Shown here piece after piece: positions 60,681-64,000 of a DNA stretch of 64,000 nucleotides. The stretch lies in NCBI RefSeq assembly GCF_003790525.1, contig NZ_CP033635.1; one strand, written 5' to 3'. Each line of letters opens with the position of its first letter. Position 1 is the first letter of the stretch. Both the position numbers and the translations under genes were made by a program. The notes below the pieces were generated by a model. That model was not told where the DNA came from, searched no databases, and saw nothing but the letters and a program-made list of their open reading frames with translations. Source of the DNA: Escherichia coli. Lineage in GTDB: Bacteria > Pseudomonadota > Gammaproteobacteria > Enterobacterales > Enterobacteriaceae.

Positions 60681-61114
60681 AGCTTTAATCCTTATTGTTG
60701 ATGCTTGTTGTGCCTGAAAATCAGGCGATTCGTCGTTTTAGTAAACAGTACGAACAGATAAACGGTTATTATAATCAACCTGGCTGTGGGTGGCTATAGT
60801 TGCGCTTTCTGTAGCGGAGAGAAGCTGCGGTACAGAGCATTTTGCGTTATCTACTCCTGACGCCTGCAAGGGGGAGGTTGGGGAAATATCTTATAGAATC
60901 TGACTTTGAAACTATTCGTATTAGCTCCGATAAGTTTGATGATGAAAACAGAACTGGCGACAACAAGTCGCTGTCTTTCTGATGAATTGACCCCAACTTA
61001 ATATTGTCAACTATCTTCACAGAATCTCCACAATCTCTTCATTATCAGAATATGCATCATGAATAAGATAAAAATACTTTCCATTACTTTGGAGAAACGT
61101 ATAATTAGCAAAAA

Positions 61115-61132
61115 TGAGAATGATCATTCTCA
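61115..61132. promoter_or_regulatory. perfect 18-bp palindrome TGAGAATGATCATTCTCA, candidate operator for the adjacent TetR regulator
   Basis: Exact inverted repeat about 25 bp upstream of the TetR start codon. Confidence 0.45.
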
Positions 61133-61157
61133 CCAAGTGATAGGCCAGGAGACAGAA

Positions 61158-61724
61158 ATGACCAGCAAGCTGGAGATACGCCACAAACAGCGTCAGGATG
61201 AAATCATTAACGCCGCCCGTCGGTGTTTTCGTCGCTGCGGATTTCATGCCGCCAGTATGTCGCAAATTGCCAGCGAAGCTCAGCTTAGCGTGGGTCAGAT
61301 ATATCGTTACTTCGCCAACAAAGACGCCATTATTGAAGAGATGGTTCGCCGTATCATCGACTTTCGTATTGCCCAAATGGACATTGACGCGCGTACCGAT
61401 CACTTTCCGGAAGTTCTTGCCTTGCGTAAATCCTTAAATGAGGACGACGACGCGCTGATGCTGGAAGTGGCTGCAGAAGCCACACGCAACCCGCGGGTGA
61501 TGGCAATGCTTGAAGAAGCTGACGCCAGAATGTTCGCTAACGGTTGTGCTCATATGAAAAGAATGCATCCCCATCTTAGCGACGAGCACATTCGTTGCTG
61601 CGTTGAAGTGTTTGCTACCATGATGGAAGGTACGGTTTATCGTCGTTTAACACCGCAAAAAAGCGATCCACAACATCTGCAGGAAATATATCAGGATATT
61701 GTTAGTATGTTGATAAATAAATAA
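61158..61724 (+). CDS. TetR-family transcriptional regulator
   Basis: About 188 aa from MTSKLEIRHKQRQDEIINAARRCFRRCGFHAASMSQIASEAQLSVGQIYRYFANKDAI... (TetR HTH). Confidence 0.8.
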   Translation: MTSKLEIRHKQRQDEIINAARRCFRRCGFHAASMSQIASEAQLSVGQIYRYFANKDAIIEEMVRRIIDFRIAQMDIDARTDHFPEVLALRKSLNEDDDALMLEVAAEATRNPRVMAMLEEADARMFANGCAHMKRMHPHLSDEHIRCCVEVFATMMEGTVYRRLTPQKSDPQHLQEIYQDIVSMLINK

Positions 61725-61740
61725 GAACAGAATTAACCAA

Positions 61741-61770
61741 TAGCGGGGGATATTAATCCCCCTTATTTCA
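61741..61770 (+). terminator. hairpin terminator after the TetR gene
   Basis: gcgggggatattaatcccccttatttc. Confidence 0.6.
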
Positions 61771-61872
61771 TTGCGAAATTCATTTCGCGATGCGGGTTCG
61801 TTATAACTGAATATCCCTGACATATCCTCATTAATTTCAATGAGGAGGGTATTTCTCACCCTGGAGAAAATA

Positions 61873-62994
61873 ATGAAGTATATAGCAACATCTGTAGTGG
61901 CAATGCTGCTCTTATCGGGTTGCGATAATACGCAAAGTAACAATTCATCCCCGTCAGAAACAGAAGTCGGCGTTGTTACACTCAAATCTCAACCGGTTTC
62001 GGTAGTCAGTGAATTAACCGGACGCACCAGTGCTGCGCTCAGTGCCGAAGTACGTCCGCAGGTTGGGGGAATTATCCAGAAACGCTTATTTAAGGAAGGT
62101 GATCTGGTCAAGGCTGGACAGCCGCTCTACCAGATTGATGCGGCCAGTTATCAGGCTGCATGGAATGAAGCCCGGGCAGCATTACAACAAGCACAGGCAC
62201 TGGTAAAAGCCGATTGCCAGAAAGCGCAGCGTTATGCTCGACTGGTGAAAGAGAACGGTGTTTCACAACAGGATGCTGATGATGCTCAGTCTACCTGTGC
62301 ACAAGATAAAGCCAGTGTAGAGGCGAAAAAAGCCGCACTGGAAACTGCGCGCATTAATCTTGACTGGACCACGGTAACCGCACCGATTTCAGGGCGCATT
62401 GGCATTTCGTCGGTAACCCCTGGCGCACTGGTGACCGCGTCGCAAGATACAGCGTTAACGACGATTCGTGGTCTGGATACAATGTATGTCGACCTCACTC
62501 GCTCCAGTGTCGATTTATTACGTCTGCGTAAACAGTCACTGGCGACCAACAGTGACACCATGAGCGTCTCACTTATTCTGGAAGATGGCACAACCTACAG
62601 CGAAAAAGGGCGTCTGGAACTCACCGAAGTCGCGGTGGATGAGTCTACCGGTTCGGTGACATTACGGGCAATTTTCCCCAATCCACAACAGCAGTTATTA
62701 CCGGGAATGTTTGTTCGCGCTCGTGTCGATGAAGGCGTGATGGAAGACGCTATTCTCGCGCCTCAACAGGGCGTCACGCGCGATGCTAAAGGCAATGCAA
62801 CTGCGCTGGTGGTGAATAAAGACAATAAAGTAGAGCAGCGAGCGCTCGAAACGGGAGAAACGTATGGTGATAAATGGCTGGTGCTGAACGGCCTGCACAA
62901 CGGCGACCGACTGATTGTTGAAGGTTCTGCCAAAGTCACTTCAGGGCAGACCGTCAAGGCTGTTGAAGTTCAGGCTAATGGAGGCAACGCCTGA
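61873..62994 (+). CDS. RND efflux periplasmic adaptor (AcrA/AcrE/MdtE-like lipoprotein)
   Basis: MKYIATSVVAMLLLSGC lipobox; clear AcrA-family similarity (VGVVT...RPQVGGII...NPQQQLLPGMFVRAR...). Confidence 0.85.
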   Translation: MKYIATSVVAMLLLSGCDNTQSNNSSPSETEVGVVTLKSQPVSVVSELTGRTSAALSAEVRPQVGGIIQKRLFKEGDLVKAGQPLYQIDAASYQAAWNEARAALQQAQALVKADCQKAQRYARLVKENGVSQQDADDAQSTCAQDKASVEAKKAALETARINLDWTTVTAPISGRIGISSVTPGALVTASQDTALTTIRGLDTMYVDLTRSSVDLLRLRKQSLATNSDTMSVSLILEDGTTYSEKGRLELTEVAVDESTGSVTLRAIFPNPQQQLLPGMFVRARVDEGVMEDAILAPQQGVTRDAKGNATALVVNKDNKVEQRALETGETYGDKWLVLNGLHNGDRLIVEGSAKVTSGQTVKAVEVQANGGNA

Positions 62995-64000
62995 TGTTTT
63001 CGCGCTTTTTTGTTCGCCGCCCGGTCTTTGCCTGGGTTATCGCCATTTTGATTATGTTGGCGGGGATTCTGGCTATTCGCACATTACCCGTCGCGCAATA
63101 TCCTGACGTTGCACCGCCGACCATTAAAATTTCAGCCACTTATACTGGTGCTTCTGCCGAAACGCTGGAGAACAGCGTGACTCAGGTTATCGAGCAACAA
63201 CTCACTGGGCTTGATAATTTACTCTATTTCAGCTCAACCAGTAGCTCTGATGGTTCGGTCAGTATTAATGTGACCTTTGAACAAGGTACCGATCCAGATA
63301 CTGCACAGGTTCAGGTGCAGAATAAAATTCAGCAGGCGGAGTCGCGCCTACCCAGCGAAGTGCAGCAAACGGGTGTTACGGTGGAGAAATCACAAAGCAA
63401 CTTTTTGCTGATTGCTGCCGTGTATGACACCACTGACAAAGCCTCCAGTTCGGATATCGCCGACTGGTTGGTCAGTAACGTTCAGGACCCGCTGGCGCGT
63501 GTTGAAGGTGTGGGGAGTCTGCAAGTCTTTGGCGCGGAATACGCTATGCGCATCTGGCTTGACCCGGCCAAACTGGCGTCTTACTCGCTAATGCCTTCAG
63601 ACGTGCAAAGTGCTATTGAAGCGCAAAACGTGCAGGTTACTGCCGGGAAAATAGGGGCATTGCCTTCACCGAATACTCAGCAACTGACCGCAACGGTACG
63701 TGCGCAGTCTCGCTTGCAGACGGTGGATCAGTTCAAAAATATTATCGTGAAAAGCCAGTCAGACGGCGCAGTTGTTCGTATAAAAGATGTGGCTCGCGTT
63801 GAGATGGGCAGTGAAGATTATACCGCTATCGGCAAACTTAACGGTCACCCGTCTGCCGGGGTTGCTGTAATGCTTTCGCCCGGTGCGAATGCGCTGAATA
63901 CGGCGACGCTGGTCAAGGATAAGATTGCCGAATTCCAGCGGAACATGCCGCAGGGATACGACATCGCATACCCGAAAGACAGCACTGAATTTATTAAAAT
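62994..64000 (+). CDS. RND efflux transporter, AcrB-like (3' end outside window)
   Basis: MFSRFFVRRPVFAWVIAILIMLAGILAIRTLPVAQYPDVAPP... AcrB-family N-terminus; ATG overlaps adaptor stop (TGATG). Confidence 0.85.
   Translation, partial: MFSRFFVRRPVFAWVIAILIMLAGILAIRTLPVAQYPDVAPPTIKISATYTGASAETLENSVTQVIEQQLTGLDNLLYFSSTSSSDGSVSINVTFEQGTDPDTAQVQVQNKIQQAESRLPSEVQQTGVTVEKSQSNFLLIAAVYDTTDKASSSDIADWLVSNVQDPLARVEGVGSLQVFGAEYAMRIWLDPAKLASYSLMPSDVQSAIEAQNVQVTAGKIGALPSPNTQQLTATVRAQSRLQTVDQFKNIIVKSQSDGAVVRIKDVARVEMGSEDYTAIGKLNGHPSAGVAVMLSPGANALNTATLVKDKIAEFQRNMPQGYDIAYPKDSTEFIK

Follow-up and report, generated by a model that had tools for sequence, protein, structure and literature searches.

The window analysed here, a stretch of 64,000 nucleotides from the Escherichia coli contig NZ_CP033635.1 (assembly GCF_003790525.1), ends within the 5' part of eefRABCD, an accessory "seventh" resistance-nodulation-division (RND) efflux system of E. 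coli, and we hold this identification, jointly with the explanation that its TetR-family repressor EefR acts on an 18-bp palindromic operator, with high confidence. The window matches E. coli SMS-3-5 at 100% identity, and the RefSeq record of that strain continues beyond the window end with the rest of eefB (1,035 amino acids, aa), eefC, eefD, and then sapFDCBA. Five co-directional genes in the order R-A-B-C-D thus lie between fabI and sapF, and this gene order and the perfect match to SMS-3-5 support the identification as eefRABCD. The finding is correct but already known: the operon, its distribution over phylogroups, its repressor, and its operator are all in print, so that as a discovery it carries little weight. 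What gives the system its importance is that eef is a silent seventh RND pump of the E. coli lineages responsible for most invasive disease, and that single mutations in eefR can switch it on. To the published picture, we add a footprint of operator and promoter across genera, the frequencies of the operator alleles in E. coli, the exclusion of a second operator, the lack of a conserved link to fabI, the recognition of mislabelled "plasmid" copies, and a conserved structured leader before eefA.

An initial annotation of the window had described a TetR regulator, an AcrA-like adaptor lipoprotein, and an AcrB-like RND pump behind a 477-bp intergenic region, with the pump running off the window, and every one of these elements is where it was placed, 335 codons of the pump being inside. 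It had named eefR/eefABC among the candidate systems, which the match to the published eefRABCD bears out, and it was also right that the cassette is absent from K-12, where fabI is followed directly by ycjD and then by sapF. Its view that the cassette stands in place of K-12 synteny holds for ycjD, since the 7.85-kb cassette occupies the place of the ~0.6-kb ycjD segment, but not for the sap operon, which is retained as sapFDCBA after two further cassette genes. Homology to K-12 extends for 123 bp upstream of fabI and ends just past the fabI promoter-like site, which puts the left boundary of the cassette at about 60803/60804, and it resumes at a hairpin adjoining the sapF stop codon. Within the cassette, the eefB start overlaps the eefA stop codon at 62994.

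The protein assignments follow from family models. EefR belongs to the TetR family (Pfam TetR_N, PF00440, E=2.1e-15), its C-terminal part giving weak matches to TetR_C_6 and TetR_C_31 (E ~6e-5), and it reaches no NCBIfam equivalog cut-off. It carries Val45 and Arg50 in helix 3 of the N-terminal TetR helix-turn-helix, and its accession, WP_000202113.1, is also annotated in O157:H7, avian pathogenic E. coli (APEC), and other strains. EefB is an HAE-1 RND permease (TIGR00915, 1553 bits against a cut-off of 940; NF000282, 1501 bits against 1250) with the proton-relay residues D408, D409, K935, and T972 present. EefA scores 273.7 bits against a cut-off of 94.9 on the RND adaptor model TIGR01730 (RND_mfp). 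EefC is a NodT-type outer-membrane factor (TIGR01845, 373.8 bits against 210) with the lipobox LLSAGC at its signal end and merely 56 bits on the TolC model, which has a cut-off of 495, and EefD is a pump of the major facilitator superfamily (MFS), Bcr/CflA type (TIGR00710, 281.7 bits against 200.9). The pump-specific NCBIfam equivalog cut-offs lie above the scores for AcrB (1380 against 2150 bits), AcrD (1409 against 1854), AcrA (391 against 765), MexA (403 against 750), MdtE (333 against 738), and OqxB (845 against 2200).

The operon was first noticed in the SMS-3-5 genome in 2008, and Colclough et al. in 2019 (PMC6790063) already counted eefR among the accessory TetR genes of E. coli and E. 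albertii. The published accounts of eefRABCD are those of Shen et al. (Virulence 2025, PMC12482432) and Pugh et al. (Microb Genom 2026, PMC12817139). The latter began from SMS-3-5 and found that the operon occurs in phylogroups B2, D, E, F, and G but in none of A, B1, and C; where present, it invariably lies between fabI and sapF, and genomes without it have ycjD there. Shen et al. selected the eefR mutants V45E and R50S on sanguinarine in an acrB-null strain, and their experiments demonstrate four points: autorepression of a gfp reporter by wild-type EefR and not by V45E or R50S; binding of EefR to a 129-bp probe with specific competition in electrophoretic mobility shift assays (EMSA), lost on deletion or single-base change of the palindrome TGAGAACGATCATTCTCA; co-transcription of the five genes, by reverse transcription PCR (RT-PCR) across all junctions; and derepression of the pump genes by 27- to 83-fold in a delta-eefR strain. 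Plasmid-borne eefAB, eefABC, or eefD raised minimum inhibitory concentrations 4- to 128-fold in a delta-acrB host (PMC12482432). Their primers match the window exactly, and their EMSA probe P1 corresponds to 61029-61157.

Promoter and operator of eefR

The perfect 18-bp palindrome that had been noted at 61115-61132, about 25 bp before the start of the regulator gene, is found exactly there (TGAGAATGATCATTCTCA, ending 25 nt before the eefR ATG at 61158), between a promoter-like site and the eefR start codon. The suggestion that it is a plausible operator of the regulator is upheld both by the published EMSA, reporter, and quantitative RT-PCR data (PMC12482432) and by conservation. It begins 9 bp past the -10 box and so covers the region where transcription is expected to start, and the promoter-like site itself falls within the 316-bp promoter fragment with which Shen et al. 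drove gfp. Allowing at most one mismatch, the motif TGAGAA-N6-TTCTCA has two matches in the window against 0.17 expected.

Across species, we compared 47 related loci, taking one genome per species, and 43 have the operator at the same short distance from the regulator start codon. The consensus over these loci is TGAGAA-YGATCR-TTCTCA; positions 2-6, 11, 14, 15, and 17 are invariant and much variation is confined to 7, 12, and 13. The sequences flanking the operator diverge, yet Escherichia, Kluyvera, Lelliottia, and Enterobacter have all retained the -35 box, the 16-bp spacing, and the -10 box, which abuts the operator in Enterobacter and is separated from it by 9 bp in Escherichia. This retention of operator and promoter across genera in the midst of diverged flanks gives independent support to the published binding data.

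Within E. coli, the window's allele, which has T at position 7 and is the perfect palindrome, is the minority form (705 complete genomes), and the C7 allele used in EMSA is found in 1,292; no complete E. coli genome among the 5,426 has an allele with G at position 12. Since positions 7 and 12 vary freely among species, EefR would be expected to bind the T7 allele as well. One genome titled E. coli, SCPM-O-B-8794 (L003, 7577-9000), has a markedly different fabI-eefR spacer and the operator allele TGAGAATGATCGTTCTCA, which is absent from all complete E. coli genomes. Its YciW is merely 80% identical to that of SMS-3-5, as compared with 95.5% between K-12 and SMS-3-5, and the genome may belong to a cryptic Escherichia clade.

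Taken together with the published experiments, these features suggest a simple course of events. A sigma-70-type promoter, TTTCCA-16-TATAAT (61078-61105), would drive eefR and, by read-through of the eefR-eefA spacer, also eefA, eefB, eefC, and eefD, perhaps with partial termination at a hairpin (H1) in that spacer. An EefR dimer on 61115-61132 would cover the start-site region downstream of the -10 box, presumably blocking RNA polymerase sterically, and so leave the whole operon nearly silent. Loss of EefR derepresses the pump genes by the published 27- to 83-fold, and a ligand is presumed to act likewise by releasing the repressor. When overproduced, EefABC and EefD export ethidium, rhodamine 6G, and sanguinarine and, in acrB-null hosts, make the cells less susceptible to several antibiotics as well.

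Several points weigh against this account. The published EMSA used the C7 allele, so that binding to T7 is an expectation drawn from its symmetry and its presence in 705 genomes. H1 looks like a terminator and, if it is one, read-through alone may not account for expression of the pump genes. The two papers (PMC12482432 and PMC12817139), moreover, disagree on the effect of the pump on antibiotic susceptibility.

Table 1. Positions of the eef features and their neighbours, in window coordinates.
Feature	Position	Strand	Details
fabI (enoyl-acyl carrier protein reductase)	59892-60680	minus	Open reading frame (ORF) and RefSeq annotation; left neighbour, outside the cassette
fabI-eefR intergenic region	60681-61157		477 bp
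Stretch common to K-12, upstream of fabI	60681-60803		123 bp, 98.4% identical (alignment, blastn)
fabI promoter-like site	60796-60768	minus	TAGCCA-17-TATAAT; inside the 123 bp common to K-12
Cassette-specific part of fabI-eefR spacer	60804-61157	+	39% G+C; no K-12 counterpart
eefR promoter-like site	61078-61105	+	-35 TTTCCA 61078-61083, 16-bp spacer, -10 TATAAT 61100-61105; 10/12 matches
EefR operator	61115-61132		TGAGAATGATCATTCTCA; perfect 9+9 palindrome, 18 bp
eefR Shine-Dalgarno	61147-61151		AGGAG, 6 nt upstream of ATG
eefR, TetR-family repressor	61158-61724	+	188 aa; ORF, RefSeq annotation, Pfam
eefR-eefA spacer	61725-61872		148 nt
Hairpin H1	61745-61762	+	GGGGGAU(AUUA)AUCCCCC and U-rich tail; just after eefR stop codon
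Hairpin H2	61769-61792	+	CAUUGCGAAA(UUCA)UUUCGCGAUG; 10 bp; RNAalifold; base CAUUUC/GAGAUG conserved, upper stem covarying
Hairpin H3	61825-61846	+	UCCUCAUU(AAUUUC)AAUGAGGA; CCUC motif paired with GAGG motif
Site 2 (rejected as operator)	61841-61858		TGAGGAGGGTATTTCTCA; matches EefR motif at 11/12 positions
Pre-start box	61853-61872	+	GTTCACCCTGGAAAAA in most genera, TTCTCACCCTGGAGAAAA here; conserved in alignment
eefA Shine-Dalgarno	61863-61866		GGAG, inside the pre-start box
eefA, periplasmic adaptor lipoprotein	61873-62994	+	373 aa; annotation, TIGR01730, lipobox LLSGC
eefB, RND permease	62994-64000	+	First 335 of 1,035 codons in window
eefC, outer-membrane factor	beyond window, after eefB		457 aa; SMS-3-5 annotation
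eefD, MFS pump	beyond window, between eefC and sapF		387 aa; SMS-3-5 annotation

Distribution and mobility of the cassette

The cassette is carried by 2,038 of the 5,426 complete E. coli genomes, and nearly all of the others match the short shared flank only. A blastn search of the K-12 fabI-sapF spacer (word size 7, E up to 10) found no eef remnants; its only matches were to the left flank of 123 bp and to the stems of the sapF-side hairpin. At the right junction (19975-20011 of locus L001 against 5775-5817 of L002), this hairpin at the sapF stop is common to eef-positive and ycjD-type genomes, with a compensatory change in its stems (CATCCTGA/TCAGGATG against CATTCTGA/TCAGAATG) and unrelated loops, and it marks the right boundary of the segment. 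The eef and ycjD states look like alternative segments rather than the product of a simple deletion with visible scars.

Shen et al. suggested that the cassette is a recently acquired mobile island spreading on plasmids, citing five E. coli "plasmid" records in their Table S6 (PMC12482432), and a plasmid copy does occur outside the species: the 90.8-kb IncFIB plasmid pAVS0889-b of Enterobacter cloacae (NZ_CP092044.1, L053) has an eefRABC-like cluster at 7155-13506, whose operator is exactly TGAGAACGATCATTCTCA and directly adjoins a TATAA(T) -10 box. We nevertheless consider this scenario very unlikely for E. coli. The G+C content of the cassette, 0.50-0.54, is that of its flanks, there are no mobility genes and no foreign-DNA signature, and E. 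albertii, E. whittamii, and a further Escherichia species have the cassette at the same insertion point. Of the five records (CP054253.1, L051; NZ_CP141085.1, L052; NZ_CP134663.1; CP165453.1; and CP089259.1), our comparison took in the first three, and all three proved to be mislabelled. Two, of 252 kb and 386 kb, have no replicon type and contain the chromosomal surroundings of the locus in full, from pyrF to sapA (pyrF, osmB, rnb, fabI ... eef ... sapFDCBA), and the third is 4.9 Mb long. That three of the five copies are chromosomal weakens the published inference of plasmid spread, which looks like an artefact of mislabelling, and in PLSDB we found no closed, replicon-typed E. coli plasmid that carries eefRABCD without the fabI and sap flanks. 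Neither in composition, mobility genes, and insertion site nor in true plasmid copies, then, does the E. coli cassette have the marks of a recent island or of a plasmid-borne cassette.

Around these questions, the related loci offer several observations on how the cluster is built. The pAVS0889-b cluster lies among genes of a housekeeping type, fimbrial and phosphotransferase system (PTS) genes included. In Erwinia, Pantoea, Winslowiella, Lonsdalea, Brenneria, Kluyvera georgiana, and Kosakonia sacchari (loci L009, L010, L021, L023, L026-L031, L037, L040, L041, L043, L045, and L048), a homolog of eefR is followed directly by a homolog of eefD, without eefABC and often with almost no spacer. This regulator-MFS pair may be the older unit, predating the RND genes that lie between the two in Escherichia. 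Several Kosakonia species have an eefR homolog without any pump gene (8008-12009 of L007, Kosakonia arachidis; also L015 and L036) and have kept a near-consensus operator; there, a gene for a KefF-like NAD(P)H oxidoreductase lies upstream, and one for an RpiR-type regulator converges from downstream.

The spacer between eefR and eefA

The second match to the EefR motif, site 2, lies in this spacer, and on its strength one might propose that EefR acts through an internal operator and a separate eefA promoter, so that eefR and eefABCD would be two EefR-regulated units and not one operon. Site 2 has the same flanks, AA...CC, as the real operator and is kept in essentially all cassette-bearing E. 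coli (the right half in 2,025 genomes, the whole site in 7/7 of those sampled), a terminator-like hairpin follows eefR, and the rise of eefA in delta-eefR, 83-fold, exceeds that of the other genes (PMC12482432). We find the proposal highly improbable, however, and largely refuted by the following evidence. Neither E. albertii and E. whittamii nor any other genus retains the right half-site, and the central 6 bp, GGGTAT, are unlike the conserved YGATCR. Two published controls also bear directly on it: the "nonspecific" competitor, which is window 61727-61872 and holds site 2 in its entirety, failed to compete for EefR, and mutant M1 (TTCTCA to TCCTCA), which mirrors the TGAGGA of site 2, abolished binding. 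A consensus scan of the plus strand of the spacer gave no promoter-like site of the sigma-70 type, and the alignment contains no conserved -35/-10 pair. On conservation, centre, non-competing fragment, and mutant alike, site 2 is rejected as an EefR operator, and transcription of the pump genes from the single EefR-controlled promoter upstream of eefR is the reading that we retain.

What the spacer does contain is conserved RNA structure. We compared 26 orthologous spacers from Escherichia, Enterobacter, Lelliottia, Leclercia, Kluyvera, Phytobacter, and Dryocola, and their minimum-energy folds nearly always show three hairpins in the same order, with compensatory changes across about six genera; the E. 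coli spacer has a fold z-score of -3.9. The first hairpin, H1, is G+C-rich and looks like an intrinsic terminator or attenuator, and an equivalent with a different stem sequence is present in nearly all of the 26. The upper stem of H2 occurs in the compensatory variants UCUGGC/GCCAGA, UCUGAC/GUCAGA, and UCCGGU/ACCGGA; over the alignment, 97.4% of cells are paired, with 35 double-sided changes, a result reached by 0/500 shuffles, and slid controls are 38-53% paired. An Rfam covariance-model search of 60600-62000 gave no match at E <=1, and neither paper (PMC12482432 or PMC12817139) mentions a terminator or hairpin.

We put forward tentatively, as a possible though doubtful reading, that the 148-nt spacer is a conserved and undescribed cis-acting RNA leader that tunes transcription and translation from the EefR-controlled promoter into the pump genes, its elements being H1, H2, H3, and the pre-start box. 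Such a leader would explain why the eefAB, eefABC, and eefABCD constructs of Shen et al. (PMC12482432) required the "eefA upstream sequences" in order to work; the forward primer of these constructs maps to window 61560, so that the leader was included. The hairpins could also be just an intra-operon attenuator plus stabilising structures, and we regard the conserved leader as a lead and not a result, although it is the sole unpublished element of some interest here. In E. coli, 61853-61870 could also form a 6-bp hairpin, UUUCUC(ACCCUG)GAGAAA, over the eefA Shine-Dalgarno sequence, created by two substitutions relative to the sister species (GTTC to TCTC); that it controls translation, for example by temperature, is pure guesswork. 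A leader peptide in the spacer was considered and rejected: the ATG inside GAGATGCGG is lost in Kluyvera (GAAGCG, GAGACG) and Phytobacter (GAAGTG), and the short reading frames differ. In Escherichia sp. MOD1-EC7003 (L005, 9568-9700), an insertion of ~125 bp separates the eefR stop codon from H1, with the three hairpins intact after it. This insertion resembles an enterobacterial repetitive intergenic consensus (ERIC/IRU) repeat (…CACCCCAGTCACTTACTCTAGTAAGCTCCAGGGGATTCAC…).

fabI adjacency and relation to known systems

The initial annotation had called the position of the cassette beside fabI, the triclosan target gene, notable, and had marked any functional link as speculation. Such a link would account for the adjacency if EefR co-regulated fabI, or if the pump exported FabI inhibitors or fatty-acid intermediates and so protected the triclosan target. 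It is true that eef always adjoins fabI in Escherichia (see also PMC12817139), that fabI and eefR are divergent, and that EefR obtains weak scores on models of fatty-acid regulators, such as 41 bits for FadR, far under the cut-off. We nonetheless give this coupling very little credence. Some 320 bp separate the operator from the promoter-like site of fabI, which is also present in K-12, a strain without eefR. Only four of the 47 related loci, moreover, all from Escherichia, adjoin fabI, the cluster lying elsewhere in Enterobacter, Kluyvera, Lelliottia, Kosakonia, Erwinia, and others, and triclosan is mentioned in neither paper (PMC12482432, PMC12817139). With fabI linkage confined to Escherichia, the triclosan link is unsupported, and cassette and fabI seem to be neighbours by historical accident, through a single insertion point in the genus.

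That the palindrome is a chance one, another regulator's site, or a structural element rather than the operator of the cassette has next to no probability: one perfect 18-bp palindrome per 64 kb is not very improbable (by our own arithmetic, ~0.24 expected, against ~0.002 per 477-bp spacer), but this one stands straight after the -10 box and 25 nt before the regulator start codon, is near-invariant over genera with diverged flanks, and binds EefR with single-base specificity in the published EMSA, so that binding data and conservation have already refuted the idea.

The closest comparison is with the published E. coli eefRABCD, with which the window shares the locus, the gene order, the fabI-sapF position, a 188-aa EefR with Val45 and Arg50, and the operator TGAGAA-N6-TTCTCA, differing from the EMSA allele in having T and not C at operator position 7. 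The eef genes of Enterobacter, Lelliottia, and Leclercia encode proteins 78-80% (EefA), 88-89% (EefB), and 76-77% (EefC) identical to those of E. coli, in agreement with the 78/87/75% reported by Shen et al. (PMC12482432) for the orthologous adaptor, pump, and channel EefABC of Klebsiella (formerly Enterobacter) aerogenes. Loci that include eefR have the same operator and promoter. The Enterobacter clusters, unlike the E. coli operon, mostly lack eefD and do not adjoin fabI. The K. aerogenes operon differs further, having neither eefR nor eefD and being silenced by H-NS (PMC12482432, PMC12817139).

Among proteins of known structure, the best sequence match to EefR in the PDB is UidR/GusR (6ayi, E=1.4e-12 over residues 10-121), which shares the TetR fold and is 21% identical according to Shen et al. 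(PMC12482432). UidR/GusR serves a different regulon, that of glucuronide use, and a different operator, and its pocket is uninformative on the inducer of EefR. EefB aligns end to end with AcrB and MexB, its closest solved structures. In its regulatory logic, the locus resembles AcrR/AcrAB-TolC, EnvR/AcrEF, TtgR/TtgABC, and MtrR/MtrCDE, in all of which a local TetR repressor controls an HAE-1 RND pump by binding a palindrome at its promoter. It departs from these systems in that its proteins fall below the equivalog cut-offs for AcrA, AcrB, AcrD, and AcrR, in that eefR is the first gene of the operon and not divergent from it, and in that eef has its own NodT-type lipoprotein channel in place of TolC, together with an extra MFS pump.

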